The notes: generated by a model from the sequence alone, not told the origin. Positions 17,678 through 46,756 are shown, counted from the first letter of the stretch. The stretch is DNA of 64,000 bases from Spartobacteria bacterium (GCA_003134765.1 PLCM01000031.1:129540-193539), one strand, 5' to 3'. Numbers and translations are program-made.

Positions 17678-17687
17678 TGGCGCGGCC

Positions 17688-17822: not shown

Positions 17823-18619
17823 CTTCCCGTCACCACGAACACGTCCTCGAGATGCGACAAGTCGACGGCCGGCGTCACCCGCGCCTGGCCATCCAGCTCC
17901 CGCACGCGGAAACTCTGGATCGTGCCGACGAGCAATCCGGAGGGAAAAACTCCGCCCACTCCTGAGGTATAAACCTTCGCGCCCGGATTCAGGTTCGCCT
18001 GTTTCGAGAGAAAATTCAGGTCGAGCATCGGCGTAACGGAGCCGGTCACGCGCTCGCCCGAAACGATCCCCTGCTCCCGCGTTCCTTCCACGGAGCACGC
18101 GACCTTGCAGTTCTCGTCCGAAATCAAAAGGACCACGGTGATGTTATCGCCCACGGTGGCGGTCTTGCCCACGAGGCCTTCGTCGGTCACCACCGGCTGG
18201 TCGGGTTCGATGTGATCGTTTTTCCCGCGATTGATTGTGATCGTGCGCCACCAGGTCGAGGAATCGCGCGCGAGAATTTCCGCCGGCACCAGCCGGAAGA
18301 GCGCCCGCTCCCGGTAGGCCAGCGCCTGCCGCAGCCGATTGACTTCATGCTCGACATCGCGCAACGCCTGGTTCGTCGCCTTGAGCGAGCGGTTCTCGAC
18401 TTTCAACGAGGCATTGTCCCGCTCCAGTTCCTCCAGGGTTTGCAACCCGCTGCTGACCGACGTGAACTGCTTTTTCAACCCGGACCCGCTCGAAAGAAAG
18501 GGGGAAATCACCTTGTAAAAGCCAGCCTGGAGCGTGCGCGTCCCCTCCGCGCCGAGAGTCAGAAAATAGGCCAGGACCGCACCGAGAACCGCGAGCGCAA
18601 TGATACTCGAACGGTTCAT
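17816..18619 (-). CDS. mreC: Rod shape-determining protein MreC
   Basis: TM helix, then a coiled coil (LEELERDNASLKVENRSLKATNQALRD), then beta-barrel domains. The ATG at 18617-18619 was verified. Confidence 0.88.
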   Translation of the reverse strand: MNRSSIIALAVLGAVLAYFLTLGAEGTRTLQAGFYKVISPFLSSGSGLKKQFTSVSSGLQTLEELERDNASLKVENRSLKATNQALRDVEHEVNRLRQALAYRERALFRLVPAEILARDSSTWWRTITINRGKNDHIEPDQPVVTDEGLVGKTATVGDNITVVLLISDENCKVACSVEGTREQGIVSGERVTGSVTPMLDLNFLSKQANLNPGAKVYTSGVGGVFPSGLLVGTIQSFRVRELDGQARVTPAVDLSHLEDVFVVTGRK

Positions 18620-18627
18620 GACGACTG

Positions 18628-18709
18628 CGAAATGGGGAATGGGGAATGCGGAATGGAAAGAAAAGCTGCGCGATCGGAATGCATTCCGCATTCCGCATTC
18701 CCGATTTCG
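18628..18709. repeat. Low-complexity palindromic spacer element (ggaatgcggaatg / cattccgcattcc)
   Basis: The inverted repeats fill the mreB-mreC spacer. Confidence 0.55.
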
Positions 18710-18718
18710 AATTTGTTC

Positions 18719-19756
18719 CTACCGCCAGTTTCGATCGCTCGAGGCCACCTGACGCAAAAATTTAAGTTCATTGAGGCATTTGCCGGTTCCTTCCGCGACG
18801 GCGCTCAGTGGATCTTCGGCAACATGGACAGGCAAACCGGTTTCTTCGCTCAAAAGTTTGTCGAAGCCGCGGAGAAGGGCGCCGCCACCGGCCAGAACGA
18901 GCCCGCGGTCGACCAGGTCGGCAGACAACTCGGGCGGACAGCGTTCGAGTGTAATCCGAACCGAATCGACGATCGTTGAGATCGGTTCGAGCAATGCCTC
19001 CCGCACTTCCTGCGACGTGATCATTAACGTCTTCGGCAACCCGGCCACGAGATCGCGACCCTTCACTTCCACGCTCGTTTCCTTTTCGCTCGGATAAGCG
19101 GAACCGATTTTGATTTTGATTTCTTCCGCGGTGCGCTCGCCGATCATCAGGTTGTAGGCCCGCTTCATGTATTGCACGATCGCTTCGTCGAGCTCGTCGC
19201 CCGCGACCCGGACGCTGCGGCTGAAGACGATCCCGGAAAGCGAAATCAATGCGACTTCGGTCGTGCCGCCGCCGATATCGATGATCATGTTGCCCGCCGG
19301 ATCCTGGACCGGCAGACCCACTCCGATCGCGGCCGCCATCGGTTCTTCGATCAAATAAACTTCTCGCGCCCCGGCGTGGGTGGCGGATTCGCGGACGGCG
19401 CGCTTCTCGACTTCCGTGATGCCGGATGGGACCGCGATCACTACCCGGGGTTTGGCGCGGACGCGGCGTCCATGCACTTTCGTGATGAAATGCCGGAGCA
19501 TCGCTTCCGTTACTTCGAAGTCTGCGATGACGCCGTCTTTCAACGGGCGGACCGCGACAATATTCGACGGGGTGCGGCCGAGCATGCGCTTCGCCTCATC
19601 GCCCACCGCGAGCACCTTGTTCGTGCCGGCCTGGACCGCGACCACCGATGGTTCACGCAGGACGATGCCCTGGTCTTTTACATAGACGAGCGTGTTGGCC
19701 GTCCCGAGATCGATGCCGATGTCGCTGGATAACCAGCCGAAGAGTCCATTAAACAT
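18719..19756 (-). CDS. mreB: Rod shape-determining actin homologue MreB
   Basis: [15 protein letters not shown]...[11 protein letters not shown]... are canonical MreB motifs. Confidence 0.97.
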
Positions 19757-19962
19757 GAAATTTTAGATTAGTCGTTCAACCACGTTCCAGTCGAGCGTGC
19801 TGGCCTGCGAGCGCGATAACGGCCGGCTGAAACGCCGTAACATGAAACGCGGCCCCATATCGTCAAGGGAGAATCACAGGGCGAGATGGAGTAATTGAGT
19901 CCTGGAGTAATGGAAAAACGGCGATTCGACATTCCCCCATTACTCCACTAATCCATTAATTC

Positions 19963-20622
19963 ATGCCGGCAGTCCTCGTCGCTCCATCCATTCTCGCGGC
20001 TGATTTCTCCCATCTCGAAACCGAAATCCATCGTGCGGAAGAAGCCGGAGCGGACTGGCTCCACCTCGATATTATGGATGGGCATTTCGTCGATAACATT
20101 TCGTTCGGGCCCGCGGTCGTCGCCACGGTGCGCAAACACACGCGGCTGCTGCTCGACGTTCATCTCATGATCGAGCACCCGGATCATTATCTGCCGCGTT
20201 TTCTCGAGGCCGGCGCGAATTCAATCACCGTCCATGTCGAAGCGGAAGCGAAACACGACGTGGCGCAAACGCTCGCGGCAATTCGCGCCGCGGGTTGCGG
20301 TGTCGGATTAACCCTGAATCCCGCGACGCCGTTCGAAGCCGTGGCACCCTATCTCGGCACGATCGATCTGCTCCTCATCATGACGGTGCATCCGGGTTTC
20401 GGCGGCCAGGTTTTCCGGCCCGAGATGATGGACAAGGTTCGGCGCGCCAGGCAATGGCGCGAGGCGAACGGCGGCAAACTGCATATCGAAGTCGACGGCG
20501 GCATCAAACCCGAGACCGCGGGCACCTCGATCGAGAACGGCGCGAACATTCTCGTCGCCGGCACCTCGATCTTCCGCGCGCCAGATTACGCCGCGGCGAT
20601 CCGTGAACTGCGCGGGGAATAG
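19963..20622 (+). CDS. rpe: Ribulose-phosphate 3-epimerase
   Basis: VAPSILAADFSHLETEI...LHLDIMDGHFV...MTVHPGFGGQ...VDGG. Confidence 0.95.
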   Translation: MPAVLVAPSILAADFSHLETEIHRAEEAGADWLHLDIMDGHFVDNISFGPAVVATVRKHTRLLLDVHLMIEHPDHYLPRFLEAGANSITVHVEAEAKHDVAQTLAAIRAAGCGVGLTLNPATPFEAVAPYLGTIDLLLIMTVHPGFGGQVFRPEMMDKVRRARQWREANGGKLHIEVDGGIKPETAGTSIENGANILVAGTSIFRAPDYAAAIRELRGE

Positions 20623-28863: not shown

Positions 28864-29213
28864 TGGAAATTCCTCACGAAGCCACCCTGCTGCGGATCTT
28901 CATCGGAGAGAGCGACCGCTACGAGCACCGCCCGCTTTACGAAGCGATCATATTAAAAGCGCGCGAAATGCACCTCGCCGGCGCCACCGCCTTGCGGGGC
29001 CCGATCGGTTTCGGCAAATCGAGCCGGATGCACACGTCGAAAATTCTCCGGCTCTCGATGGACCTGCCGATGATCATCGAGATCGTGGACAGCGAGGAGA
29101 AGATCCAGGGCTTCCTCCCCGTCCTCGACGGCATGATCACCGGCGGGTTGGTGACGATGGAAAAAATCCGCGCCCTGCACTATCGCGGCGCGATCAGCGG
29201 TGGCGTTCCATGA
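28863..29213 (+). CDS. DUF190 (PII-like) protein, commonly linked to crcB
   Basis: MEIPHEATLLRIFIGESDRYEHRPLYEAIILKAREMHLAGATALRGPIGFG... The start overlaps the GNAT stop (TAATG). Confidence 0.8.
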   Translation: MEIPHEATLLRIFIGESDRYEHRPLYEAIILKAREMHLAGATALRGPIGFGKSSRMHTSKILRLSMDLPMIIEIVDSEEKIQGFLPVLDGMITGGLVTMEKIRALHYRGAISGGVP

Positions 29214-29961
29214 ATTCTTTCGCGAGAGCGCGATAGGCGCGCGCGCCGGTTCCGTTCGGATCGTGTTCGAGGATCGATTTGCCGAAACTGGGCGCTTCGC
29301 TCAGGCGGACGGTCCGCGGAATGACGGTTTCGTAAACGCGCTCGCCGAAATGGGCGCGGACATCAGCGACCACCTGCGCGCTGAGGTTGGTCCGGCTGTC
29401 GAACATCGTCATGACGATGCCGCCAATCTCAAGCCGGTCGTTCGCGCCGGACTCGCGGACCTGCTCGATGATGCGGACGATTTTCACCAGGCCTTCGAGC
29501 GCGAAATATTCGCATTGAATCGGCGTGAGGAGTTCGTCAGCGGCGGCGAGCGCATTCGTCATGAGAATGCCGAGCGAGGGCGGGCAATCCAGCAGGACAA
29601 AATCGAAGGTGTTGTCGGAACGGAGCGGAACGAGGGTTTCGGCCAGGCGGGTGAGGTGATTGTCGAGCCGCGCGATTTCCACTTCGGCCCCGGCGAGATC
29701 GAGGTCGGCGGGCACGAGGAAAACGCGCTCGACGCGGGTGGGCAGAATTTTGTCGACGATCGCAGCGGAGCCGAGGAGAGGATCGTACAAGCTCTCGCCC
29801 TCCAGTTCCTGCAAGCCGAACGAGCTGGTCGCGTTCCCCTGCGGATCGAGATCGATGATCAGGATGCGCAAGCCTTCCTCGGCCAACGCGCAGCCGAGAT
29901 TGACCGCGGTGGTCGTTTTCCCCACGCCGCCTTTCTGGTTCGCGATGGCGATAATCCTCAT
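29194..29961 (-). CDS. parA: ParA/Soj-family ATPase
   Basis: Deviant Walker A MRIIAIANQKGGVGKTTTAVNLG...IIDLDPQGNAT. No parB is adjacent. Confidence 0.92.
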   Translation of the reverse strand: MRIIAIANQKGGVGKTTTAVNLGCALAEEGLRILIIDLDPQGNATSSFGLQELEGESLYDPLLGSAAIVDKILPTRVERVFLVPADLDLAGAEVEIARLDNHLTRLAETLVPLRSDNTFDFVLLDCPPSLGILMTNALAAADELLTPIQCEYFALEGLVKIVRIIEQVRESGANDRLEIGGIVMTMFDSRTNLSAQVVADVRAHFGERVYETVIPRTVRLSEAPSFGKSILEHDPNGTGARAYRALAKEFMERHR

Positions 29962-29968
29962 GGGAAGA

Positions 29969-30095
29969 AAATTCGAAATCCGAAGCGCGAAACTCGAAAC
30001 AAATCCGAATTACGAATGGGGGAAAACGCAGTGTCTGCATTTCGGAATTTTTCCTCGGTCATTGTTTCGAGTCTCGTGCTTCGGATTTCGAAATT
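29969..30095. repeat. Long imperfect hairpin element (cgaaatccgaag arms) between the LanB-like gene and parA
   Basis: aaattcgaaatccgaagcgcgaaactcgaaaca (29969-30001) pairs with tgtttcgagtctcgtgcttcggatttcgaaatt (30063-30095). Confidence 0.7.
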
Positions 30096-32586
30096 ATCCA
30101 GGAACAATCTGGGTGCGAAGTTCGAAAGTCCTGCGCCCGTCCGCCTCCTGCCAAAGCAAATGATCCGGATTCGGAAGCATCTCGGTGACCTCGAGCTCAC
30201 CGGCTTTCGTCAGCCAGCCATGAAAGACTTCGAGGAACAAATAACTCTCGAGGTCGATGAAGACCGGTTTGGTATCCTTGTCGCGGCCTTCGGCGCCGCT
30301 GCGGCGAAGCGCCTGTTCACTGGGCCGAATGTAGACGTGGCGCGGCCAGCCCTTTGCCGCGCGCAGGCGTTCGATCGCCGCGACGAGGTTCCGGGCAACG
30401 CCGGTGTAATTTCCCGCCGGCAATTCCTCCAGTGTCACGGTCCACGAACGGCGTTGCACAATCACTTTGCCGCAACGTAACCGCGGCATGTGCGGCGTCC
30501 GCCCAAATAGAAACGGATGGAACCCAAGCGGAATCACCCAGGCGCGGGCGAAGGAGCCAAGGTATTCGTGCGACTCGCGCGTGCGCAAGCCGACGTCGCC
30601 GCTGGCCTCATCCGCAAACACCTCGATCTCGGCCGGCGGGATGAGCCGCCAGCGCGGATCGCCCCGTTGCGGCGCGACGAAACTCGTCAGGCCGGGCATG
30701 GCATCGAGCACTCTCACGGCCGTCGTCGCGGTGAAATCGATCGCGAAAAAGCCGAAGTGAAAAGTCGGCCGGCCTTTTGTCGTGCTCGCGAGCGCCCGGC
30801 CCAGTCCCTCCTTGTCGGGACACGCCCAGTAAAAGCCGTGATGCAACAACGCGACCGGCGGATGGAGTTCGGCCAGGACCCAGTCGTACTCACCCCGGCC
30901 GACGGCGTCCACGGACTTCGCAGAAATCTGCATGTCGGCCGAGGGATAAGTGTATTCGTCGAACTTCGGATACTGGAGATTTTTGCGAACGAAGTGGCAA
31001 TCATCGGCGGTGAGCTGCCATTCGTCGGCATCCGGCCGATGCGCGACCTGTTGGCGAAAGGCGGCTTTTACCTCCTGGAAGGCCATGTGCGCCAGCCCGA
31101 CCATTGCCGGTCCCGTAAGCGGCATTCGCAATTGCTCACAAACGTGCAGAAATGCGGGAAGGGGCAGAGCGCCATTTCGGGTCGGCGCCTTTTCGAGAAG
31201 TCCGCGCAAACCGGCGGAGACGCGGCTCGCCACGAAGGCGTAGCAATCGCGCCACAGATCGATCCACGGGGCGGCATCGCGCACGACTTCTCCGACGAGA
31301 TCTTCACCGATGGTGAAACCGCATTCGCGGAAACATTCTTCACCGATCGGATTGGCGGCGGAATACAAAAAACGTGTCCCGGTTTTCGGCAACGCGCCGA
31401 GCCGTTGCAAACGGTCGTCCGCCTCATCGATGATCCGGGTCCGCGCCGCCGTTTCGTCAGTCTCGGCAAACTTTCGCGGTAATTGCGCGAGGGGCTGAAG
31501 CCGCTCGAGCCACCGTGCGCGGACCGCGTTATCGCGCCACGCCGCGACATCGGCGACCAGGACATCGAAGGCGTGGGGCTCGAGCGCGGGAACCTCGACT
31601 TCCCAGCGGATGATCTTTTGCCGGGCCAGTTGCTCGAGAGGAGTCATTTCGACGCCTAACGAGTATGCGGGTGTTTTCGAATCAATCTGGCGAAGAAGGT
31701 CCCGGGTCGCGTCGTCAAGCGCGACCGTTTCACCAGTGTCGGCAAAGACGAAACGGTTTCCTTCGATCCGGCCATTTGGATTCAAGCGCGGCGCCAGTTC
31801 CGCGCGAACCTCCGGATCGCCATTCAACGCGGCGGCCAGGCCGTGCGCGGTCCAACGCTCGAGAAAAGTTTCGCGGGCCGCGATGCCGGGCCGCGGCGAG
31901 AGCGTCAAACTTGCCGGCGCTCCTCCAATTGTCCCCCACCCTTCCGGGCCAAACGCGCTCAGCGAATCGTTCTTCGCCGCGATGCGTTGCAAATAAAGAA
32001 GCAGATGCCGCTCATGAGCGCGCGACGATTTGTTGCGCGGCGGCAGGGCACCGGTGGCCGCGGATTGTTTCGCGAGGCGTTCGCGCAATCCTTCGGACGT
32101 GAAGACCAGATAGGGCGGCAAAACTGTCCGCGCCGCTTCGAGCAGATTGCTCCGCGCGGCCGCCAGTTCGCGCTGCAACGATTCCTCCAAGCGCGTTTCA
32201 GCCGCGGCCAGCTGCGACGCGCATTCCCAGCAATGGGCGAAAGCGCGCGAAGGAGCGTCGCCTGCCGGCGGCACCGCCCCGGAGCGAATCGCCTTCCGCC
32301 AGGCGCGAAATAAATCCTCGGAGAGCCCGTGGCCGCGGTGACGAAGAAGTTCTTCCACTTCCACCCTGGCTTGCGCGAACTCATCCTGCCTGACCACCAA
32401 TTCGCGGGCCAGTGCCGCCGTTTCGATCGTGACAAGTTTTTCGACGGCATCGAAGGGCACGCCGGCCATTCGGAGCAAAAATATGGGGGCAACGCGGTAC
32501 GACGAGTCAGACACTTGTCCAACAGAACGGAAGCCGTAGGCAGTGACAAGTGAAAGTCTACGCTCCGAAGGGACGTGCTTCCGCAC
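30094..32586 (-). CDS. Lantibiotic-dehydratase N-terminal (glutamylation) domain family protein; stand-alone LanB / PEARL-like
   Basis: 830-aa ORF with VAPIFLLRMAGVPFD, HLLLYLQRIAAKNDSLSAFGPEGWGTIG and the C-terminal KPVFIDLESYLFLEVF...ELEVTEMLP...GRRTFELR. The ORF-track start is a GTG inside a hairpin arm, so the true start may be the GTG at 32512-32514. The family call is from memory of motifs and no HMM was run. Confidence 0.6.
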   Translation of the reverse strand: MRKHVPSERRLSLVTAYGFRSVGQVSDSSYRVAPIFLLRMAGVPFDAVEKLVTIETAALARELVVRQDEFAQARVEVEELLRHRGHGLSEDLFRAWRKAIRSGAVPPAGDAPSRAFAHCWECASQLAAAETRLEESLQRELAAARSNLLEAARTVLPPYLVFTSEGLRERLAKQSAATGALPPRNKSSRAHERHLLLYLQRIAAKNDSLSAFGPEGWGTIGGAPASLTLSPRPGIAARETFLERWTAHGLAAALNGDPEVRAELAPRLNPNGRIEGNRFVFADTGETVALDDATRDLLRQIDSKTPAYSLGVEMTPLEQLARQKIIRWEVEVPALEPHAFDVLVADVAAWRDNAVRARWLERLQPLAQLPRKFAETDETAARTRIIDEADDRLQRLGALPKTGTRFLYSAANPIGEECFRECGFTIGEDLVGEVVRDAAPWIDLWRDCYAFVASRVSAGLRGLLEKAPTRNGALPLPAFLHVCEQLRMPLTGPAMVGLAHMAFQEVKAAFRQQVAHRPDADEWQLTADDCHFVRKNLQYPKFDEYTYPSADMQISAKSVDAVGRGEYDWVLAELHPPVALLHHGFYWACPDKEGLGRALASTTKGRPTFHFGFFAIDFTATTAVRVLDAMPGLTSFVAPQRGDPRWRLIPPAEIEVFADEASGDVGLRTRESHEYLGSFARAWVIPLGFHPFLFGRTPHMPRLRCGKVIVQRRSWTVTLEELPAGNYTGVARNLVAAIERLRAAKGWPRHVYIRPSEQALRRSGAEGRDKDTKPVFIDLESYLFLEVFHGWLTKAGELEVTEMLPNPDHLLWQEADGRRTFELRTQIVPG

Positions 32587-32648
32587 GTGCCGTTATTCGC
32601 GGCGCTTGAGGAGAGCCAAAAAAATCGGACGTGCGGAAGCACGTCCCT
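32569..32648. repeat. 19-bp perfect-stem hairpin with 42-nt loop in the kinase to LanB-like spacer
   Basis: agggacgtgcttccgcacg (32569-32587) is the reverse complement of cgtgcggaagcacgtccct (32630-32648). Confidence 0.8.
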
Positions 32649-32666: not shown

Positions 32667-33815
32667 CTAGTTGTTGAGCAGCGGCAGGCGGATCGTGAAG
32701 GTAGTCCCGACCTGGGGAGTGCTGTCGACCTTGATCGAGCCGTTGTGGTCTTCCACCACCTTTTTGGTGATGTAGAGACCGAGACCGGTGCCGCTTTTGC
32801 CTTGCTTCGTCGTGAAATAGGGATCGAAAATTTTCGCCATCTGCGCGGGCGCAATCCCGTATCCGGTATCTTCGACGCGCACGTCGACGTAGAAATCCTT
32901 GCGCACGCAGCTCACTGTCACCGTCCCCTTTTTTTCGCTGACCGCCTGGACCGCGTTGATGATTACGTTCTGGATGGCACGCGTCATCTGCGTGGAATCG
33001 CCGAGAAGAGTGCAGGCGTCATCGCATAGATTGGATTTCAGCTCGACGCCATTTTGGGCGGCCATCGCGGTCACGCCTTTCACAACCTCGCGGACGAGGG
33101 CGGAAACGGAGATCGGCTTGTGCGGCGTGGCTTCGACGCTGCCATAGCTCTGCCACATTGTCAGGAGCTCGCGACAGAGCCGGACATTCTGCTCGATGAT
33201 CTGGAGTTCCTTTGCGTTCTGGCTCTTCGCTCCATTATCTTTTTCCGACTCCTCGAGCTTCTTGGCAAGGAGTTGAACGTACCCCCAAACAATCGTGAGG
33301 GGATTGCCGAGGTCGTGCACAAACTCCGCCGAGGCCTGGCCTAACGAGGCCAGCCGCTCCTTTTGCGCCAGCTCTTTCAGGAGCCGATTGTTGAGTTCCT
33401 TGATTTCCTCCGCCGCATTCACGCCGGTGCGGTGAAGACGGGTCCGTTCCACATTGCGGCCGATCACCTCCCGCATTTCTCGCGCGTCAAAAGGCTTGTT
33501 GATGTAATCGTTGGCGCCGAGCCGGAGCGCTTCCTGCGCAGTCTCGAGCGCGCCGAACCCGGTCAGCATGATGACCGCCACGTGCGGATCGATTTCCCGG
33601 ATGCGCCGCAAACCATCGATGCCGCTGGCGCCGGGCATGCGAATGTCGGTAATCACGGCGTCGGGATGTTTTTCCTTCAAGAGCTTGATCCCGGCCTCGA
33701 CGCAATCGGCCGTGTAGACCTGATAATTCGGCTTCAACAGCATGCGCAAACTTTCGCGAGGCCCCATCTCGTCATCGATCACGAGGACTTGGGGAAGGTC
33801 GGAGGCAGCTGTCAT
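32667..33815 (-). CDS. Hybrid response-regulator receiver / histidine kinase (REC-HisKA-HATPase)
   Basis: REC: VLVIDDEMGPRESL...DAVITDIRMPGASG...NKPF. H-box: SAEFVHDLGNPL. G-boxes are in the C-terminus (GTGLGLYI). The ATG at 33813-33815 was verified. Confidence 0.88.
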   Translation of the reverse strand: MTAASDLPQVLVIDDEMGPRESLRMLLKPNYQVYTADCVEAGIKLLKEKHPDAVITDIRMPGASGIDGLRRIREIDPHVAVIMLTGFGALETAQEALRLGANDYINKPFDAREMREVIGRNVERTRLHRTGVNAAEEIKELNNRLLKELAQKERLASLGQASAEFVHDLGNPLTIVWGYVQLLAKKLEESEKDNGAKSQNAKELQIIEQNVRLCRELLTMWQSYGSVEATPHKPISVSALVREVVKGVTAMAAQNGVELKSNLCDDACTLLGDSTQMTRAIQNVIINAVQAVSEKKGTVTVSCVRKDFYVDVRVEDTGYGIAPAQMAKIFDPYFTTKQGKSGTGLGLYITKKVVEDHNGSIKVDSTPQVGTTFTIRLPLLNN

Positions 33816-33934
33816 GGCGCGTAAGAGAAAGCTAAGGCTGTACCGCGTAACGAACGTATAGTGAGCTGCCCCTCGCCTCAAATGGCGTGTCTGTGAAGTG
33901 TGAAACTTTTTTTTGATGGCACAAGAAGCAACTT

Positions 33935-33963
33935 GTGAATAAGTCGGAAATTTGGTGAATAAG
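33935..33963. promoter_or_regulatory. Direct repeat GTGAATAAG-N11-GTGAATAAG in AT-rich divergent control region
   Basis: The exact 9-mer occurs at 33935-33943 and 33955-33963 (20-nt period). It lies between divergent genes starting at 33815 and 34059. A role as a regulator binding site is inference. Confidence 0.3.
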
Positions 33964-34058
33964 GTGGAGACAGAGAGCCACAAAAACATAATGACTGGAT
34001 TTAGCGTAATCACTAGAATGTCCGCCTCTTCCTCCAAATCCGAATCACAAATGGAGCC

Positions 34059-35297
34059 ATGTTAAAGCGGAATCGCGTCGTTGTTACCGGCATGGGCGTC
34101 ATCGCGCCGAATGGAATCGGACTAGAAGCCTTTTGGGATTCGATCGTGTCCGGACGGAGCGGCGTGGGTCCGATTACCCACTTCGACGCGAGCGCCTTCA
34201 AAAGCCGGATCGCCGGTGAAGTGAACGGATTTGAACCACTGGATTACATCGATCCAAAGTTCAAGCCGAAACGGATGGCGCGACACACGCAGTTCGCTTT
34301 CGCGGCCATGAAAATGGCGCTGGCGGATGCGGATTTCGACCCGTCCAAACATTCGGTCGATCATCCAATTCCTGTCATGCTGGGCGTGAGCACCACCGCG
34401 ATGGAAATTCTTGAAAGCGGCTGGGAGGATCTTTCGCGGCGCGGCCCCCGCGGCGTGAGTGCTGGAGTCGTCGATTGTCAGCCGCAGGCGGCCACGCAGG
34501 TGTTAACGATGGCGTTGGGAATCTCGGCCCGGGCCACCACAATTTCTTCAGCCTGTCCATCGGGTCTGGATGCGATCGCGGCGGCGGCCACCATGATCCG
34601 CCATGGAGAAGCGGATATCGCGGTGGCGGGCGGGACGGACGCGACGATCACGCCTTTGTCGATGGCGAGCTTCGCCACGGCGGGATTGAGTTCGACGCGG
34701 AATTCAGACCCGGAAAGGGCGAGCCGGCCATTCGACCTCCAGCGGGATTCCGGCGTCATTTCGGAGGGCGCGGGCATCGTAATCCTGGAGAATTATGAGA
34801 GCGCTATCGCCCGGGGCGTTTCGCCTTACCTCGAAATCACGGGCTACGGCACGCAGGGGGATGATTACGCCAGCGGTGAGCTGTTCGGATTGGGGCAAAC
34901 CATGCGGGCAGCGTTGAACAGCGCGGGCAAATCGCCCGAGGATGTCGATTACATTTGCGCCTACGGCCCGGGCCATCCCGCGCTCGACATTGTCGAGACG
35001 GATATGGTGAAGCGCGTTTTTGGGCGGCGCGCCTACAGCATTCCGATGAGCTCAATCAAGGGCGTGACCGGCAACGCCCTCTCCGCGGCGGGTCCGCACC
35101 AGGTGATCACGTGCGGTTTATGCTTTAAGCATGGGATCATCCCGCCTACCGCCAACTACGAAGTGCCCGATCCGCGTTGCGACCTCGACTACGTACCAGG
35201 CCGTTTTCGGAATCGACGGATCAACACCGCGCTGATCAATGTGCGCGGCCTGGGCGGAGGCAACAGCAGCCTGGTGGTGGAACGCGTTCGCGAATGA
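34059..35297 (+). CDS. FabF-like beta-ketoacyl synthase with non-canonical active site
   Basis: MLKRNRVVVTGMGVIAPNG, ISSACPSGLDAI (active-site Cys), DPERASRPFD, and C-terminal GLGGGNSSLVVE. The His positions are substituted (see findings). Confidence 0.88.
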   Translation: MLKRNRVVVTGMGVIAPNGIGLEAFWDSIVSGRSGVGPITHFDASAFKSRIAGEVNGFEPLDYIDPKFKPKRMARHTQFAFAAMKMALADADFDPSKHSVDHPIPVMLGVSTTAMEILESGWEDLSRRGPRGVSAGVVDCQPQAATQVLTMALGISARATTISSACPSGLDAIAAAATMIRHGEADIAVAGGTDATITPLSMASFATAGLSSTRNSDPERASRPFDLQRDSGVISEGAGIVILENYESAIARGVSPYLEITGYGTQGDDYASGELFGLGQTMRAALNSAGKSPEDVDYICAYGPGHPALDIVETDMVKRVFGRRAYSIPMSSIKGVTGNALSAAGPHQVITCGLCFKHGIIPPTANYEVPDPRCDLDYVPGRFRNRRINTALINVRGLGGGNSSLVVERVRE

Positions 35298-37807
35298 ACG
35301 CCGCCAATATTTCCCTCTGGCTGGCCCTGCTCATTCAGTTTGGGCTTGGACTGGCCGTCTACCGCGCCAATTCGCGCAACCACGCAAATCAAAGTTTTCT
35401 CATTGTCTCTTTTTTTATCTCGGCATGGCTCCTCTTCCTGCAATTCGCATTCGACGCCACGGATCCCGTAAAGGCCGCGCTCTGGATTCGCAGTGCTTGG
35501 GCCAGCGGGGTCCTGATGGTGAATGGATTCAACCTGCTCCGGCTCGGCATTCTCTGCCGGGACGGCGGGTGGAAGGAAATCGGGCGCAGGTGCGCCGGCC
35601 TCGCGATTCCGAGCCTGGTCGCCATCGCGGGCTGCTACACGCCTTTCTTCCTGCGATCGGCCGAGATCCGCCGGGCGAGCGGTCATGAACTAATTCCGCT
35701 GCCGGTTTACGGTCCACTCTTTCCCGTTTTCGGGGCCCTGCTCGCGAGTTCGGTCGTCATCCTGATCATCTTCTATGTGCGGGACCTCCGGCGCACCGCC
35801 GGAGTGCAGAAGGTCGAACTCCAGTTCATCGTCGCGGGCGGAGTCGCACTCGCCATTCTGGTCGCGCCCACCCAATTTGTGGATCGCGCGATCGCGATGC
35901 AGTTCGCGCCGTTCCGGATCGTTGTCTTCAGCCTGATCATTGCCTACGGCATCTCAACCCGGAAGATCATGGATGTCGGATTTTTCTTCCGGCGCATCAC
36001 ATCCTACGCCGTCCTCGCGGCCTACTTGCTGGTGCTTTACGCTCTGGTTTGGTGGCTGGTTTCGACGGCGTCCAGACCGCTTTTTGCAACCGAAAGCCGC
36101 ACTTTCGGGCACGTGGCGGCGGCCCTCGTCGTCGCCTTCGCGATGGCGCCGGCCCGTGGAATTTCTCAGCGCTTCGCCAACCGCCTTTTCATCGGCTCGC
36201 GCGGGATTGATTTCCAATCGACGATGAACCAGGCGGCCAGCATCCTGAAATCGGTCGCCACCCTGCAGGACTTGCTCGATCGCTTCGCGAAAACGATCGG
36301 GGAAGCAGTCGGGACGGATCGCGTTTTCATCCTGCTGCCCGAGAAGGACGCCTACGTGCAGCATTACCCCGCGGTCCATCCGGATTCCGACACGCCTGCC
36401 CTGCGGTTGAACCGGAGCGATCCCACAATTTCCTACCTCCAGACCCATCAGGAAGTGCTCGTCCTGGATGAGCTCCATCGTATTCGCAAAACGCCGGAGA
36501 TGGAGCGGGCCGCGAAAGAGATGGAGCGTCTGAAAACTGCCGTCGCTCTCGGCTTTTTCTCGCGGCAACATCTGGCGGGCGTCATGTTCCTGGGCCCGCG
36601 GCTCTCGGGCCGCATCTATGGCGCGGTCGAACAGAACGCCCTCCAGGTCCTCTGCGGCCAGTTGGCGGTGGCGATCGACAACGCCCAACTCTTCACCGAG
36701 GTCGAGAACGCGAGAATCTACAACGAAACCCTGCTGGAAAATCTGACGACCGGCGTGATCGCAGCCGGGGCCGACGAGCGGGTCACGGTATTTAATAGTG
36801 AGGCCGGGCAAATTACGGGGCTCAATCCGCGTGAAATCATCGAGCATTCGCTGGATCGCCTGCCCGCCGGGCTGCGCGCAATCCTGTGCGAGACGCTGCG
36901 CACCGGCAGCCGGCAGGAAAACAGCGAATTGGTTCTATCGCTCGGCGATCATAACGCGGTCGTTCGCGCCAGCAGCTCGATCTTTCACGGCCAACAAGGC
37001 GAGATGCTCGGCGCGCTCGTCGTGCTGACTGACATCACCGCGCTCAAACGCCTCGAATTACAGATCCGCCGGAGCGACCGGCTCGCCAGCCTCGGCACAC
37101 TCTCCGCCGGCATGGCGCACGAGATTAAAAATCCGCTGGTCTCGATCAAGACTTTTGCGCAGCTGTTGCCCGAGCGTTATCAGGACTCCGATTTCCGCGA
37201 AACCTTTTCGAACCTGATCGGGCACGAGATCGATCGGATCGATTCGCTGGTGAACCAGCTCCTCCGTTTTGCGCGGCCGGCCAAGCCAGTTCTGAGGCCA
37301 ATGCACGTGCACGAAGTCCTGGAAAAATCGCTCCAGCTCGTGGGCCACCGCCTCTACCAGAAGGAAATCAAATTAGCTCGTTCCTGGCAGGCCGATGTGG
37401 ATACTATCCGCGCCGATGCCGACCAGCTCGAACAGGTTTTCCTCAACTTCTTCCTCAACGCCATGGACGCCATGAAGCACGGCGGAGAACTGAGCGTGGC
37501 GACGGAGATCCACGCGGGAACGGAATGGGTGGCGGCCATCTCTGGGACCAATGGCGATTCTCACGAAGTCCTGCGGGTGACGATTCGCGACGACGGCGAA
37601 GGCATTCGCAAGGAAGATATCCCCCACGTCTTCGATCCGTTCTTTACCACGAAAGACTACGGCACGGGACTCGGGCTTTCGGTTGTGCACGGCATCATCC
37701 AGGAACATGGCGGACAGATCGAAGTGGAAAGCGAGATCAGGAAAGGAACATCATTTCACATTCTTCTGCCGCTGGTTCGTTTCGCGGAGGGGGTTGTCGC
37801 GGCATGA
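35294..37807 (+). CDS. Sensor histidine kinase, multi-TM N-terminal domain + GAF + PAS + HisKA + HATPase
   Basis: About 8-9 TM helices at the N-terminus. The H-box is SAGMAHEIKNPL and the ATP-lid is DDGEGI...GTGLGLSVV. ATG 35294 overlaps the KS stop (ATGA). Confidence 0.88.
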   Translation: MNAANISLWLALLIQFGLGLAVYRANSRNHANQSFLIVSFFISAWLLFLQFAFDATDPVKAALWIRSAWASGVLMVNGFNLLRLGILCRDGGWKEIGRRCAGLAIPSLVAIAGCYTPFFLRSAEIRRASGHELIPLPVYGPLFPVFGALLASSVVILIIFYVRDLRRTAGVQKVELQFIVAGGVALAILVAPTQFVDRAIAMQFAPFRIVVFSLIIAYGISTRKIMDVGFFFRRITSYAVLAAYLLVLYALVWWLVSTASRPLFATESRTFGHVAAALVVAFAMAPARGISQRFANRLFIGSRGIDFQSTMNQAASILKSVATLQDLLDRFAKTIGEAVGTDRVFILLPEKDAYVQHYPAVHPDSDTPALRLNRSDPTISYLQTHQEVLVLDELHRIRKTPEMERAAKEMERLKTAVALGFFSRQHLAGVMFLGPRLSGRIYGAVEQNALQVLCGQLAVAIDNAQLFTEVENARIYNETLLENLTTGVIAAGADERVTVFNSEAGQITGLNPREIIEHSLDRLPAGLRAILCETLRTGSRQENSELVLSLGDHNAVVRASSSIFHGQQGEMLGALVVLTDITALKRLELQIRRSDRLASLGTLSAGMAHEIKNPLVSIKTFAQLLPERYQDSDFRETFSNLIGHEIDRIDSLVNQLLRFARPAKPVLRPMHVHEVLEKSLQLVGHRLYQKEIKLARSWQADVDTIRADADQLEQVFLNFFLNAMDAMKHGGELSVATEIHAGTEWVAAISGTNGDSHEVLRVTIRDDGEGIRKEDIPHVFDPFFTTKDYGTGLGLSVVHGIIQEHGGQIEVESEIRKGTSFHILLPLVRFAEGVVAA

Positions 37808-39804
37808 TTCCATCGCCCCCCATTTGCATCCTCTACTCGCAGGATGCCGATCTCGTCCGCCGCGTGAAGGCATTCCTGAGCGCGCTCGCGCAAGTGCGCC
37901 ATGTCAGCTCGCCGGACCGTCTCGACGCCGTGCTGCAACAGAATAGTCCCGCCATTCTCGTCCTGGATTTACGGGCCAAGGAAGCACGCGATCTTCTCGA
38001 ACAAATCCAGACCGCGCTGCCTGAGATCCTCGTCATTGCGCTGGGGACGTTGCGCTCGGAGCCGTTGCGCGAAGTCGAGCATTCTGGCATTTACGCTGCG
38101 GAAGATTTGCAGATCGATCGACGTCGTTTGCAGGGGCTGGTCTCGCGCGGGTTCGATCATTTGCGCGTCCTGCAGGAAAATCGCGATTTACGCGATCATG
38201 CGTTGGTGCCGTTCGCCGCTGAGCCGCTGCGGCGCGTCGAGGCGCCGCCCGAACGACGCGAGGCGTCGATGCCGCTTCTGCGTTTCCCACGCGTGTTCCG
38301 TCGGTTCGATAACGTCGAGGCACTCCTCGCCAGCGTCGTGGAAAATGTAGCTGACGCGACCGGTGTGGGCCGGGTGGGAATCTTTTCCAAAATCAGGCAG
38401 AGCGATCGCTACCGTTTGCGCGCCGGCCTGCGTTGTCTGCCCGAGACCTATGACATTGAATATGGCGAGCGCGATGCCCTCGTGCGCTGGTTTGAGCTGC
38501 ATGCGCACCTGATTTGCCGGGCAAATCTTCCGCAGGTCGATCCGGCACAGCGCGCGATCATGCGGCGCGCGCTCGATACCTTTGCGGCTGAAGTAATCGT
38601 CCCCCTCCACGCCGCCGGCCGAATTATCGGATGGGTCTTTTTTGGCCATCGAGTGACCGGTCAACGCTTCGAGTCGTCCGATCTCGAAGCGCTGATGGTT
38701 CTCGCGGAACACGTTTCAACGGTCCTGGAGAATGCGTTGCTCAATGAAGAAGTGAGAGTGCAAAAAACACTCGCGGAGACGTTGCTCAAATCTATTCCGC
38801 CGGGGATCGTCGCGACCGACCAAGAGGCGAACATCCGCTGGTTCAATCCGACGGCCGAACAAATTCTCGGCGTTGACGCCCAGGATGCCCTCAATCACCC
38901 CATCGAGGCGGTCGGCGGCCGGCTCGCGGCTTTTTTGCGCGAAACCCTGGATGCGCACGAAAATCTGCCGGCCCGCCAATGGATCGATCCCAACACCCGG
39001 CGATCGCTTTCGGTGGAAACGCGGCGTTTGGTCGACGAGAAAACTCCGCTCGGGGCCGTGGCCGTCGTCCACGATCTGACGACGGAGGACAACCTCCGGC
39101 AGAAGCAGGACCTGGTGGATCGTGCTGCCTTCTGGACGGATCTCGCCGCCAGCATGTCACACGAAATCCGCAACCCACTCGTGGCGATCAAAACATTCGC
39201 CCAGCTTCTCCCGGAGCGATTCGAAGACCCGGATTTTCGCAAGGATTTCAACGAGATCGTCGTCCAGGAAATCGACCGACTCGACAAGATCATCACTCAA
39301 ATCAACAACTTCGCGCATCCCTCCGAGCTGGTGATGAAGCCGGTCGACCTTCGAGGCCCCCTCAAGAAAGCGATCGAGTTGGCCAAAGGACGCGTGACAA
39401 AGAACGGCGTCGCCATCGACACGACTTTGCCCAACGACCTGCCGCGCGTCCTCGGCGACGAAGATGCCCTCACCGAAGCGTTCGCCCATATTGTGGCCAA
39501 TGCTGCCGAAGCGACCTCGGGCCAATCCAAACCGCGCATCACCCTGGCTGCCAAATCAATCCACGAAGGGGGCCGAACCAGCGGAGTGGTGATCACCGTT
39601 CAGGACAACGGCCGCGGGATTTCCGCGGACCTCCGCGAGAAAATCTTCTCGCCGTTTTGCACCACGAAAGCGCGCGGAATGGGCCTCGGGTTGCCAATCG
39701 TGAAACGCACCGTGTTCGACCATAACGGGCGCGTCGACATCGACTCGAATCCCCACGGGACCTCTGTGAGCATTATGCTCCCGGCGACCACGATCGCGAA
39801 ATAG
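37804..39804 (+). CDS. Cytoplasmic histidine kinase, receiver-like N-terminus + GAF + PAS + HisKA + HATPase
   Basis: The N-terminal ICILYSQDADL...AILVLDLRAKEARDLL looks receiver-like. The H-box is ASMSHEIRNPL, followed by DNGRGI...GMGLGLPIV. ATG 37804 overlaps the previous stop (ATGA). Confidence 0.85.
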   Translation: MIPSPPICILYSQDADLVRRVKAFLSALAQVRHVSSPDRLDAVLQQNSPAILVLDLRAKEARDLLEQIQTALPEILVIALGTLRSEPLREVEHSGIYAAEDLQIDRRRLQGLVSRGFDHLRVLQENRDLRDHALVPFAAEPLRRVEAPPERREASMPLLRFPRVFRRFDNVEALLASVVENVADATGVGRVGIFSKIRQSDRYRLRAGLRCLPETYDIEYGERDALVRWFELHAHLICRANLPQVDPAQRAIMRRALDTFAAEVIVPLHAAGRIIGWVFFGHRVTGQRFESSDLEALMVLAEHVSTVLENALLNEEVRVQKTLAETLLKSIPPGIVATDQEANIRWFNPTAEQILGVDAQDALNHPIEAVGGRLAAFLRETLDAHENLPARQWIDPNTRRSLSVETRRLVDEKTPLGAVAVVHDLTTEDNLRQKQDLVDRAAFWTDLAASMSHEIRNPLVAIKTFAQLLPERFEDPDFRKDFNEIVVQEIDRLDKIITQINNFAHPSELVMKPVDLRGPLKKAIELAKGRVTKNGVAIDTTLPNDLPRVLGDEDALTEAFAHIVANAAEATSGQSKPRITLAAKSIHEGGRTSGVVITVQDNGRGISADLREKIFSPFCTTKARGMGLGLPIVKRTVFDHNGRVDIDSNPHGTSVSIMLPATTIAK

Positions 39805-39882
39805 GCATTTTCGATTTCCGATTTTGGATTTATGGTTGCGTCCCCCGTCGGGCGCAATTCAACCATCAATCTCCAAAATCGA

Positions 39883-40836
39883 ATGATCGTCACCACTGCT
39901 CAACTTTATAAACACGCCTACGGCAAATACGCCGTCGGGGCCTACAACATTAATAACATGGAGCAGCTCCTCGGGCTCTTCAGCGGCAACGTCCGGAGCA
40001 AAGCGCCGTTCATTATCCAGCTTTCCAAGGGCGCCCGGAAATATGCCGACAAGCGGATGCTCGAAGCCATGATCCGTACCGCCGAAGAGATGTTTCCCGA
40101 GGCCGTATTCGCGGTCCACCTCGACCATGGCGACGAGGAGACCTGCTATGATTGCATTGCCTCGGGGTTCTACAGCTCGGTGATGATCGATGCGAGCCAC
40201 GAGGCGTTCGACGAGAACGTTGCCATCACGAAGCGCGTGGTGGAAAAGGCGCATCCCAAAGGCATCAGCGTCGAAGCGGAGCTGGGTCAACTGGGAGGCG
40301 TGGAGGAGGACATCAAGGTCGATGAAGGACATGCTTCGCTCACGAATCCGCTCGAGGCCGTGGAATTCGTGAAGCAGACCGGGTGCGATTCACTGGCGGC
40401 CGCGATCGGCACCAGCCATGGCGCCTACAAGTTCAAGGGCCAGCAAAGCCTTCATTTCGACGTGATCGAGGACATCCAGAAATTGATCCCCGGCATGCCG
40501 ATCGTGATGCACGGCAGCTCGAGCGTCCCGATCGAAGAAGTGCAGCGGATCAATGCGGCCGGCGGAAAGCTCGATCCTTCAGCGCGGGGCGTGAACGAAG
40601 AAGAATATTTGCCTGCGGCCAAACTGGGCGTCACCAAGGTAAACATCGATACTGATGGGCGCCTGGTCTGGACGAGGGTCCATCGCGAATACTTCCGGGA
40701 CCACCCCGCCGAATTCGATTTCCGCCCGCCGGGAAAAATCTTCGTCGAGGAATACGCCAAATTTATCGCCCACAAGAATGGCAAGCTTGGCTCGGCTGGC
40801 CAGCTCGACGGCGTTCGGGAGAGTCTGAAGGGATAG
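39883..40836 (+). CDS. fba: Class II fructose-bisphosphate aldolase
   Basis: YAVGAYNINNMEQ...HLDHG...AIGTSHGAYKF...MHGSSSVP. Confidence 0.93.
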   Translation: MIVTTAQLYKHAYGKYAVGAYNINNMEQLLGLFSGNVRSKAPFIIQLSKGARKYADKRMLEAMIRTAEEMFPEAVFAVHLDHGDEETCYDCIASGFYSSVMIDASHEAFDENVAITKRVVEKAHPKGISVEAELGQLGGVEEDIKVDEGHASLTNPLEAVEFVKQTGCDSLAAAIGTSHGAYKFKGQQSLHFDVIEDIQKLIPGMPIVMHGSSSVPIEEVQRINAAGGKLDPSARGVNEEEYLPAAKLGVTKVNIDTDGRLVWTRVHREYFRDHPAEFDFRPPGKIFVEEYAKFIAHKNGKLGSAGQLDGVRESLKG

Positions 40837-41096: not shown

Positions 41097-41543
41097 ATGA
41101 AAATCCTTGCCCGCGATACCGTCGAGTTCCTCCTTATCGATGACGACCCAGCCATTACCAAATTCCTCGTCACCTACCTCAAACAAAAAGGGCACACCTG
41201 CGAATACCTCACCGAGGGTTTCAAGACCGCGGCCTGGCTCGAGTATCACCGCTGCGACGTGGCGGTGGTCGATCTCAACATGCCCAAAGTAGATGGCATT
41301 TCCCTTATTTCGTTCATCCGCGAGATGAGCCAGACCCTCCCGATTATCGTCTTCACCGGCGTCGGTTACGACGAAGACCGAATGCACGCCGCCCTCCGCG
41401 CCGGAGCCAACGGTTACGTCAGCAAAAATCTTCCGATCGAACAGCTTTACTGCGTCCTGTCACGCGTCCTGGCGACTTGCCAGCAGCGGGCCAGGCGCGA
41501 GTCTCTGGCCCGCCCCCAACAGGTGTTGGCCGGCGCCGCCTAA
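41097..41543 (+). CDS. Single-domain CheY-like response regulator
   Basis: FLLIDDDPAI...CDVAVVDLNMPKVDG...IIVFTGVG...GANGYVSKN. There is no output domain. Confidence 0.88.
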   Translation: MKILARDTVEFLLIDDDPAITKFLVTYLKQKGHTCEYLTEGFKTAAWLEYHRCDVAVVDLNMPKVDGISLISFIREMSQTLPIIVFTGVGYDEDRMHAALRAGANGYVSKNLPIEQLYCVLSRVLATCQQRARRESLARPQQVLAGAA

Positions 41544-42294: not shown

Positions 42295-43092
42295 GTGATC
42301 ACGTCCCGTCAACTCATTCTCATTTCGGTGGCATTGCTTACCCTGTCCGCGATCTTCGCCGTCCTTAATCTGCAAAAGACCCGCGGCTTGCGCACGGAGG
42401 TGGTGCAAAGTGAAACCGCCCGGCAATCGGCGGACCAGCAGCGAATCTCACGCGAGAAACAACTTAAGGACCGGGAAGCGGCGGTGGCGGCCGCGAATGC
42501 AAAATTCGGCGACACCCAAAACAAAGTCGCGAGCGCCGAAGCCGAGCTGGTCAAAGTGCAGGCAGAAAAAAATGACCTGCAGGCGAAGCTGCACGCGAAC
42601 GAGACGGAGATTGCCGAGTTGCGCAAACGGATCGACACCGCGGTCACGAAGCCGGCGACAGGCGCTTCTCCTTCGGCCTCAACCACCGATCTGCAGGCCC
42701 AGCTGGAAGATGCCAAGAAGCAGCTCGACGCCGCCGAGCGCGAAAAAATCCTTCTTTCGGACAAAATGAAAGGCACGCAGGAGAAAACCACCCAGCTCGA
42801 AACGGAGAAAAAACACCGGCCCGCGGCCGGCGGAAACAACCCCGGCATCCGCGGCACGGTCCTCGCCGTGAACCCGGCCTACAATTTTGTCGTCCTCAGT
42901 CTTGGCGCCCGCCACGGGGTCGAGTCCAACAGCGAGATGCTGGTTCTGCGGGGCGGTTCGTTCATCGGAAAGATCCGCATTTCGTCGGTTGAACCGGCCA
43001 CCGCCATCGGCGATATCATTACGAGCACTCTGGCCCGAGGGGTCCAGGTGCAACCTGGAGACACCGTCGTTTATGCTGGTAACAATTCGTAA
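42295..43092 (+). CDS. Membrane-anchored coiled-coil protein, hypothetical
   Basis: N-terminal TM helix LILISVALLTLSAIFAVL and long heptad-like region. GTG start. Confidence 0.55.
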   Translation: MITSRQLILISVALLTLSAIFAVLNLQKTRGLRTEVVQSETARQSADQQRISREKQLKDREAAVAAANAKFGDTQNKVASAEAELVKVQAEKNDLQAKLHANETEIAELRKRIDTAVTKPATGASPSASTTDLQAQLEDAKKQLDAAEREKILLSDKMKGTQEKTTQLETEKKHRPAAGGNNPGIRGTVLAVNPAYNFVVLSLGARHGVESNSEMLVLRGGSFIGKIRISSVEPATAIGDIITSTLARGVQVQPGDTVVYAGNNS

Positions 43093-43288
43093 GCCGATTC
43101 AGTTCAGGAGCCTTGCCCTGGCGCTGCTTCTCTGCTCCGCCGCCGCCCTGGTTTCATGCGCGACCAAAGATTCCGGAGTGCTCATTAACGATCCCACCGC
43201 CAAACGCGAGACTGCCCTCCCCTGGAACGAACAAACGGATTGGGAGCGCGAAGGCGAAGGAGCTGCCCTCAATCAGCAGCACCGGTAG
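43073..43288 (+). CDS. Small putative lipoprotein (71 aa)
   Basis: MLVTIRKPIQFRSLALALLLCSAAALVSC with lipobox LVSC. ggag lies 10 nt upstream. It overlaps the previous gene end by 20 nt. Confidence 0.45.
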   Translation: MLVTIRKPIQFRSLALALLLCSAAALVSCATKDSGVLINDPTAKRETALPWNEQTDWEREGEGAALNQQHR

Positions 43289-43300
43289 TGCGCCGCTCAC

Positions 43301-44629: not shown

Positions 44630-44703
44630 TTCGATAACTCAATTAACGCAGAATGCCCCTGCGACCATCAACCTTTTTGCGCGGAGCCTCGCATAAGTAA
44701 GAT

Positions 44704-44794: not shown

Positions 44795-44852
44795 GGCACC
44801 GAACGCCTCGCCCGGTTGCGCCCCCCGCCCCTTAATGCCACGATCCCCTGTC

Positions 44853-46748: not shown

Positions 46749-46756
46749 CGTGCAGG

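Follow-up and report, generated by a model that had tools for sequence, protein, structure and literature searches.

Peptide aminoacyl-tRNA ligases (PEARLs) such as TglB, TmoB, BhaB1, BhaB5, BhaB7, AmmB2 and AmmB3 are proteins of about 800 amino acids that comprise only the N-terminal domain of LanB enzymes and lack the elimination domain. Their chemistry has been established for TglB and BhaB: a carboxylate is phosphorylated, the aminoacyl-tRNA attacks, and the tRNA is hydrolysed off. The PEARL papers and reviews consulted describe these enzymes only inside biosynthetic gene clusters. One homologue, SnaE of Stackebrandtia nassauensis, is encoded in a non-ribosomal peptide synthetase-polyketide synthase (NRPS-PKS) cluster and extends the product of the assembly line (PMC11212132). 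Here we describe a gene for a PEARL-type enzyme, very probably an active one, that lies in a core chromosomal gene block, next to a gene for a Soj-type ParA ATPase. It is located on the minus strand, at 30094-32514, of a 64,000-nucleotide stretch of DNA (the window) from Spartobacteria bacterium (GCA_003134765.1 PLCM01000031.1:129540-193539).

We think it probable that the gene product is a catalytically competent "small LanB" of the PEARL type, which has been recruited to a core function outside any cluster, is coupled to parA, and acts on a substrate that is encoded elsewhere than beside the gene.

Family, fold and catalytic signature

The window translation contains an uninterrupted open reading frame (ORF) of 830 codons at 30094-32586 on the minus strand. 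The plus-strand frame of the same region is riddled with stops. A first-pass annotation, made from the sequence, had described a protein of 830 amino acids. The frame is indeed of that length, and all three motifs that had been quoted are found in the minus-strand translation (VAPIFLLRMAGVPFD; HLLLYLQRIAAKNDSLSAFGPEGWGTIG; KPVFIDLESYLFLEVF...ELEVTEMLP...GRRTFELR), but the protein is likely shorter. In the alignment with orthologues, conservation begins at VS(D/E)-SYRVAPIFL, and the GTG at 32514 (VSDSSYRVAPIF...) is therefore the likely start codon, from which 806 amino acids are read. Many public gene models (791-796 amino acids, for example P0001) begin at an internal ATG, which in the window is the ATG at 32469, located 15 codons later and giving 791 amino acids. 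Models with this start lose the first two beta-strands, which are confidently modelled, and the conserved Arg15, whose position matches that of an Arg essential in TglB. The ratio of non-synonymous to synonymous substitution rates (dN/dS) of the gene was 0.08-0.13 in comparison with nine orthologues, slightly above the values of the neighbouring genes; the ORF is thus a real coding sequence under purifying selection.

The protein belongs to the LanB N-terminal (Lant_dehydr_N) superfamily. Lant_dehydr_N (PF04738) was the sole Pfam family matched, in three stretches, with E = 3.5e-17 and 62.3 bits (gathering cut-off 28). The elimination domain Lant_dehydr_C (PF14028) gave no match to the protein at E <= 0.01. 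No NCBIfam model matched the protein, and PADLOC likewise gave nothing. A search of the PDB with the single sequence (phmmer) returned nothing relevant, and a profile was required for matches. The profile, built from 27 full-length homologues with identities down to 24%, matched TbtB (6EC7) with E = 3.7e-26 and GodF (9JHQ) with E = 9e-14. It covered both the N-terminal and the C-terminal parts, and the C-terminus of the protein coincided with the end of TbtB.

An AlphaFold2 model based on the alignment of the 27 homologues had a mean predicted local distance difference test score (pLDDT) of 91.6 and a predicted template modelling score (pTM) of 0.90. Foldseek comparison of this model with the PDB yielded significant matches only to TbtB, GodF, MibB, NisB and MadB (E 1e-17 to 4e-25), all of them LanB glutamylation domains. 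Template modelling (TM) scores were 0.65-0.69 for TbtB and 0.63-0.69 for TbtB and GodF together. The model includes a helical bundle (residues 30-152) and a beta-beta-beta-alpha-alpha-alpha unit (residues 248-298), both predicted with high confidence. The latter resembles the recognition elements (RREs) of pathways for peptides that are made on the ribosome and modified after translation (RiPPs), and it carries a ...LL.RCDG.TPA..LG pattern that we take to be typical of such elements. A helical bundle and an RRE-like unit have been described as features of split LanBs and PEARLs. The Pfam, profile and Foldseek matches therefore bear out the family assignment of the first-pass annotation, and its remark on the missing C-terminal elimination domain is borne out as well.

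The N-terminal domains of NisB, MibB and MadB share the fold of the window protein (Foldseek E 1e-17 to 2e-19). However, these enzymes have about 1000 amino acids, carry the PF14028 elimination domain and have LanC and LanA partners, all of which are missing from the window locus, and the 27-homologue profile did not pick them up. The closest solved structures are instead those of TbtB (thiomuracin) and GodF (goadsporin), which have the same size and likewise consist of a stand-alone domain with a helical insertion.

According to PMC11212132, PEARLs are set apart from tRNA-dependent dehydratases by extra phosphorylation residues and by the lack of an eliminase nearby. The alignment in Fig. S12 of that paper shows the motif Y-x-Q-R-x3-K-N-[DE]-T-x-x-F for PEARLs (TglB, BhaB1/5/7, AmmB2 and SnaE) and R-x3-[RK]-[ST]-[ST]-P-[FY] for dehydratases. 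It also shows a C-terminal E-[LI]-R in PEARLs, of which dehydratases retain the Glu alone. The legend counts E-x-R, which is Glu801/Arg803 in TglB numbering, among the residues needed for ATP-dependent phosphorylation. The tRNA-binding motif of the window protein, LYLQRIAAKNDSLSAF, reads LYLQR177IAAK181ND and has the PEARL form YxQRxxxKN[DE]. The C-terminal motif RRTFELRTQ (F-E798-L-R800-T) matches ELRTTF/EIRTTF of BhaB1 and TglB. Both QRIAAKNDSLSAF and FELR are PEARL forms, and the dehydratase motif of split LanBs is not matched.

Six residues (R177, K181, E798, R800, D527 and E549) are invariant in the 27 homologues, and four others (R15, Y174, Q176 and H551) are almost invariant. By order and spacing, R15, Y174, R177, D527, E549, H551, E798 and R800 correspond to Arg34, Tyr205, Arg208, Asp558, Glu575, His577, Glu813 and Arg815 of BhaB7, and R15, D527, E798 and R800 to Arg10, Glu542, Glu801 and Arg803 of TglB, which are residues that have been modelled or mutated in these two enzymes. 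Direct comparison with the published alignment covered only the R177/K181 and E798/R800 motif blocks. The third phosphorylation residue (D527), the Glu/His pair of the Mg-site (E549 and H551) and the N-terminal Arg (R15) fit in order and spacing and were mapped by position alone. Among 145 unique orthologues, the catalytic blocks were the best conserved segments. We conclude that the window protein is a PEARL-type enzyme and very probably active.

The similarity to TbtB and GodF, which are glutamylation proteins, could also point to an enzyme of the split-LanB type that O-glutamylates Ser/Thr residues in a Glu-tRNA-dependent manner. Since no eliminase follows, the glutamate ester would then be the end product. 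The tRNA-binding Arg/Lys pair fits this idea equally well, as it is common to both enzyme types. We nevertheless consider such an activity improbable. TbtB and GodF use Glu-tRNA without ATP and require a separate eliminase, and their genes belong to clusters for thiopeptides or linear azole peptides. In the inspected loci, the 10 kb on either side of the gene contained no eliminase, and none was present among the larger ORFs scanned in the rest of the window. TbtB and GodF have RxxxK-TSP and no Arg in E-x-R, whereas the window protein has QRxxxKND, rather than the RxxxR/K-[ST]-[ST]-P of dehydratases, and E-L-R. The PEARL-specific Arg of this C-terminal motif is invariant, as is D527. Finally, the sister clade is found in pearlin clusters that resemble tgl, not in thiopeptide or lanthipeptide clusters (see below).

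Gene order in the clade and coupling to parA

Relatives were collected in a scan of one genome per species, which gave 152 relatives, and in a metagenome scan, which gave 78 more loci of the same clade. Close relatives number in the hundreds at 72-89% identity, and the named ones are labelled Chthoniobacterales or Verrucomicrobiota. The best 80 of the 152 relatives all belong to this order and share 54-86% identity. A second homologue search and the metagenome scan, which was seeded with non-Chthoniobacterales sequences, returned almost solely the same clade, with few distant contexts.

The position of the PEARL gene is fixed in 159 orthologous loci. The conserved block comprises, on one strand, genes for a REC-histidine kinase, the PEARL and a Soj-type ParA, and, divergently, genes for a FabF-like, ketosynthase-like (KS-like) protein without catalytic His residues, two kinases and an aldolase. 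Counting in each case the loci with enough flanking DNA, parA was found directly 3' of the PEARL gene in 129 of 135 and the REC-kinase gene 5' of it in 109 of 113. The KS-like gene was in place in 93 of 96 loci, the first and second kinase in 78 of 81 and 68 of 71, respectively, and the aldolase in 49 of 68. Genes outside the block differ between loci, and orthologues were never found in lanthipeptide or thiopeptide clusters. The PEARL clade is single-copy and vertically inherited, with members in no fewer than 150 species-level Chthoniobacterales genomes, and its place in a core chromosomal block, coupled to soj/parA, distinguishes it from the characterised PEARLs. The earlier view of a two-component signalling locus rather than a bacteriocin cluster is thus supported, as are the neighbours it had named; the tightest partner, however, is parA and not the kinase.

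The parA gene (29194-29961, minus strand) lies 132 nt downstream of the PEARL gene and encodes a protein of 255 amino acids with AAA_31 and CbiA domains. Among solved structures it is closest to a "ParA family protein" (8RAY, E = 3e-73) and to Soj of T. thermophilus (1WCV, E = 7.5e-68), and it is therefore of the chromosomal partition type. In most genomes, the end of the PEARL gene and the start codon of parA share an ATGA (about 50 loci), which is a signature of translational coupling between the two genes. In one locus (L165, 8577-13221) the kinase/KS block is replaced upstream by genes for a pilT-like ATPase and an RND efflux pump, and PEARL and parA still overlap. Because of the ATGA overlaps, the adjacency and the retention in L165, the PEARL-ParA pair is the tightest unit of the locus. 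In another locus (L046, 12400-12430) the PEARL ORF continues in frame into ParA (…RTLIVTSHMKIVAIANQKGG…), which is either a natural fusion or a one-base error in a long-read metagenome-assembled genome (MAG).

In the six loci without a directly adjacent ParA, an O-methyltransferase gene is inserted between PEARL and parA. This insert (Dimerisation and Methyltransf_2 domains) is confined to one subclade and occurs in seven loci (L025, L026, L029, L030 at 12719-13867, L033, L039 and L064). In four of the loci with the insert, a duplicated 3'-end fragment of the PEARL gene (66-178 amino acids) separates the insert from parA.

The 132-nt spacer between the two genes of the window (29962-30093, minus strand) is predicted to form one long hairpin (minimum free energy -65.5 kcal/mol, z -8.6) and had no match in Rfam. 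It is a lineage-specific insertion, which is missing where the genes overlap and from most genomes. Related copies were found at the same junction in L001, L007, L008, L010 and L056, and unrelated GC-rich palindromes in L005, L067, L078 and L081. We considered a conserved structured RNA and rejected this idea, as the spacer is lineage-specific and other lineages have unrelated palindromes or none. It looks as if the PEARL-parA junction has been repeatedly invaded by small palindromic elements.

The close association with parA raises the question of whether catalysis has been lost or become dispensable, in which case the protein would regulate the Soj-type ParA or be its cargo or a structural partner. 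Genes for orphan ParA ATPases usually lie beside that of the protein which the ATPase positions. The translational coupling, the apparent in-frame fusion in L046, and the persistence of the PEARL-ParA pair where the rest of the block is lost would fit such a role, and a motif search of the window revealed no convincing parB. On the other hand, the residues for PEARL catalysis are invariant or nearly so and lie in the best conserved segments, which would be unexpected for a pseudoenzyme. The L046 fusion may be the assembly error mentioned above, and the ParA is of the canonical Soj type, whose usual partner is ParB. We regard a non-catalytic role as quite improbable.

Selection and conservation also bear on the idea that the gene is a leftover or hitch-hiker of a decayed natural-product cluster without current function. 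Its relatives at up to 47% identity are cluster enzymes, and the ancestor was therefore probably acquired from such a cluster. However, the low dN/dS, intact full-length ORFs in about 150 loci at 53-89% identity, and the fixed position with translational coupling to parA effectively refute the view of the gene as a relic, which had been raised earlier as a possible objection. In our opinion, the motifs and the selection data disfavour a glutamylating enzyme, an inactive protein and a relic alike.

Partner genes, distant relatives and neighbouring elements

The first-pass annotation had noted that the gene lacks the partners of a RiPP cluster. This was confirmed: the larger ORFs scanned across the window included neither an eliminase nor a LanC, a peptidase or a peptide exporter, and such genes were not present within 10 kb on either side in the orthologous loci inspected. 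The same scans of the window and the orthologous loci revealed no LanA precursor, and a separate elimination-domain gene was not seen in any inspected locus. The literature that was searched contained no paper connecting Chthoniobacterales or Udaeobacter to lantibiotic dehydratases or lanthipeptides.

It had also been noted that no candidate precursor of at least 60 amino acids was present. This holds as well when the search is taken down to ORFs of 15 amino acids. Every ORF of 15-120 amino acids in the intergenic parts of the block was checked against 164 loci, and none of them was conserved as coding sequence. Only two small ORFs matched beyond the closest relatives, at 33832-33981 (minus strand, 49 amino acids) and 33952-34065 (plus strand, 37 amino acids). 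They seemed to be conserved in about 20 loci, and in other genomes both contain stops and frame changes, so that they represent conserved DNA motifs and not peptides. In other genomes, the intergenic spacers flanking the PEARL gene have minimum lengths of 53 nt upstream and -4 nt downstream. The REC-kinase has no constant end (LLNN, LPE, LAE, AGS, HDK and others), and the ParA tails are variable, with 0-40 residues. With short spacers, no conserved small ORF and variable C-termini, the locus offers no cis-encoded candidate for a PEARL scaffold.

A search of the whole library returned 1772 representatives at E <= 0.001, of which 164 reached E <= 1e-30. Full-length relatives beyond the clade have about 785-840 amino acids and at most 47% identity to it, and the named ones are from Myxococcota (Kofleriaceae and Anaeromyxobacter). 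Their contexts are different from that of the window gene. One contig (L085, 1-9469) carries four paralogues, and another locus (L089) contains two tandem copies with a MatE exporter. An amidase gene and small ORFs are present in L088, and L171 combines a methyltransferase with aconitase, LeuD and HMGL-like genes. The Kofleriaceae locus L170 (3327-12409) has two Lant_dehydr_N genes, a TglH-type MNIO enzyme and an amino-acid permease, and resembles the tgl cluster for 3-thiaglutamate. These loci appear to be uncharacterised pearlin-type clusters. Because the outside relatives have natural-product-cluster contexts, the Chthoniobacterales clade looks like a derived singleton that descended from cluster enzymes. 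The window protein resembles the characterised PEARLs in that its nearest relatives lie in tgl-like and multi-PEARL clusters, as well as in the domain content, the tRNA and phosphorylation motifs and the helical bundle with RRE-like unit described above; its invariant or nearly invariant acidic and His residues fit those of BhaB7 by position. In contrast to them, it is encoded in single copy, and no gene for a scaffold peptide, a protease, a transporter or a tailoring enzyme such as an MNIO adjoins it.

The lack of a precursor gene is also a feature of SnaE, which is PEARL-type, has the same conserved motifs and works without a ribosomal precursor peptide. By analogy, it is possible that the window protein adds an amino acid to the carboxylate of a small molecule or an acyl compound, perhaps to give a product that is sensed by the adjacent kinases. 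The PEARL homologues that act on NRPS-PKS products are indistinguishable by sequence from peptide-acting PEARLs (PMC11212132). In the window, the divergently adjacent gene (34059-35297, plus strand) encodes an atypical FabF-like ketosynthase homologue (Pfam), which scored 366 bits with the FabF model, under its cut-off of 494. Both this protein and, in the one subclade, the inserted Methyltransf_2-type O-methyltransferase could take part, and the RRE-like region is relatively weakly conserved. We consider a small-molecule substrate unlikely all the same. In contrast to the SnaE cluster, the locus has no assembly line, and the block is devoid of genes for a carrier protein, an NRPS, a PKS, a CoA-ligase or an exporter. 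In alignment with B. subtilis FabF (4LS5), the FabF-like protein retains the catalytic Cys, but both catalytic His residues are replaced, by Tyr (AHGTST to AYGPGH) and Asn (TGHLLG to TGNAL), and the same replacements occur in about 97 orthologues. Product synthesis by this protein is unlikely because of the loss of both His residues; it may be a non-condensing, acyl-binding, sensor-like protein. Moreover, its gene is on the strand opposite to PEARL and is coupled to a kinase, the PEARL-ParA pair persists without the KS block in L165, and the RRE-like fold of the PEARL was modelled with high confidence.

The REC-kinase gene (32667-33815, minus strand) encodes a hybrid REC-HisKA-HATPase_c protein according to Pfam; NCBIfam matches were generic and below their cut-offs. 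Its stop at 32667 is 80 nt away from the first GTG of the PEARL ORF and 152 nt from the likely start codon. On the plus strand, the stop of the FabF-like gene overlaps the start of a gene (35294-37807) for a membrane histidine kinase that combines GAF, PAS, HisKA and HATPase_c domains and in whose orthologues HisKA_7TM was seen as well. The start of the second GAF-PAS-HisKA-HATPase_c kinase gene (37804-39804, 666 amino acids) overlaps the stop of the first. A class II fructose-bisphosphate aldolase gene (39832-40836; F_bP_aldolase in orthologous loci) ends the block. It is followed by a gene for a single-domain response regulator with REC only (41097-41543), which L001 and L002 have as well. 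In the remaining window (1-20000 and 43000-60000), what was scanned or recognised are core chromosome, housekeeping genes: tRNA-Trp, tRNA-Thr, EF-Tu, nusG, mreB, PBP2, RNase G, glgC, glmS, components of a pst-like ABC transporter and two phosphoesterase-family genes. None of these is mobile or cluster-like.

Two non-coding regions lie upstream of the PEARL gene. At 32571-32646 (minus strand), a perfect 8-bp GC hairpin with a T7 run (GGACGTGCTTCCGCACGTCC GATTTTTTT; 32646-32627), located 21 nt past the REC-kinase stop, resembles a terminator. An inverted copy of this hairpin (32571-32590) follows 37 nt beyond it, 5' of the PEARL start. These hairpins could be a terminator, an attenuator or a further palindromic insert. 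The divergent intergenic region (33816-34058) contains sigma-70-like sites and two motifs of about 40 nt between 33922 and 34020 (approximately 33922-33963 and 33979-34020), which are kept in 20-40 genomes. Read as pseudo-ORFs they give LIHQISDLFTSCFL and KNIMTGFSVITRM, with stops elsewhere. The two motifs are probably promoters or operators of both operons.

Proposed activity and biological meaning

In the reading that we prefer, an active PEARL with a substrate encoded elsewhere, the enzyme would be expressed from the operon behind the REC-histidine kinase and translationally coupled to the chromosomal Soj/ParA. By analogy with the characterised PEARL family, ATP would be bound in an ATP-grasp-like pocket, and a carboxylate of the substrate would be phosphorylated, most likely the one at the C-terminus of a peptide or protein made on the ribosome. 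The acyl-phosphate would then be attacked by the amino group of an aminoacyl-tRNA, held via its CCA end. Hydrolysis of the tRNA would come last and would leave the substrate one residue longer. In this way we infer the chemistry, the kind of substrate (a peptide or protein) and the amino acid that is added. The retained RRE-like unit in the predicted structure favours a ribosomal peptide or protein that is encoded elsewhere.

Several points weigh against this reading. The RRE-like segment had a mean conservation of 0.54-0.64 among the 145 orthologues and, together with the helical bundle, shows the lowest conservation in the protein. The putative ATP site is assigned from motifs and positions, because PDB searches returned no solved PEARL structure; a 2026 review likewise states that none has been reported. 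All loci are from one order, and their synteny could therefore reflect, in part, phylogenetic inertia rather than functional coupling. ParA and the REC-kinase are unlikely as classic C-terminal substrates, since their C-termini are not conserved. Finally, the authors of PMC11212132 could not separate peptide-acting PEARLs by sequence from SnaE-like enzymes that act on assembly-line products.

A more specific proposal is that the PEARL carries out a housekeeping modification, the tRNA- and ATP-dependent addition of one residue to a carboxylate of a cellular protein, at its C-terminus or elsewhere, which would tune chromosome segregation or signalling. This proposal seems doubtful to us at present. 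Possible targets are Soj/ParA, which is co-translated with the enzyme, the REC-kinase encoded upstream, and some unlinked protein. Single residues are known to be added to protein termini by other enzymes: Aat and ATE1 use an aminoacyl-tRNA donor, and tubulin tyrosine ligase (TTL) activates a C-terminal carboxylate in an ATP-grasp-like manner. If the substrate of the PEARL is a cellular protein, these enzymes would be analogous in making a non-templated addition of one residue, but the likeness would be one of analogy only, as their folds and families are unrelated to PEARLs. The housekeeping modification, if it exists, would correspond, in bacteria and at the C-terminus, to tubulin tyrosination or to the N-terminal tagging by L/F- and Arg-transferases. 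Its origin would be an enzyme of natural-product synthesis, and it would occur in a soil lineage that is abundant; Chthoniobacterales include some of the most abundant soil bacteria.

The PEARL and LanB-type enzymes studied to date all come from biosynthetic gene clusters and have substrates whose genes lie next to theirs. Independent of the substrate, the clade described here is new in that a PEARL is fixed as a single-copy core gene, coupled to soj/parA, outside any cluster. For genome mining, this means that a Lant_dehydr_N match in the Chthoniobacterales lineage is no marker of a lanthipeptide cluster. With an active enzyme, the locus would offer a testable entry point, made up of one enzyme, few candidates next to it and well-defined catalytic mutants. 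Ligation that depends on aminoacyl-tRNA would then have moved from secondary metabolism into core cell physiology, with a peptide, a protein or a metabolite as its target, and tRNA-dependent, ribosome-independent peptide-bond formation would have a wider biological scope.

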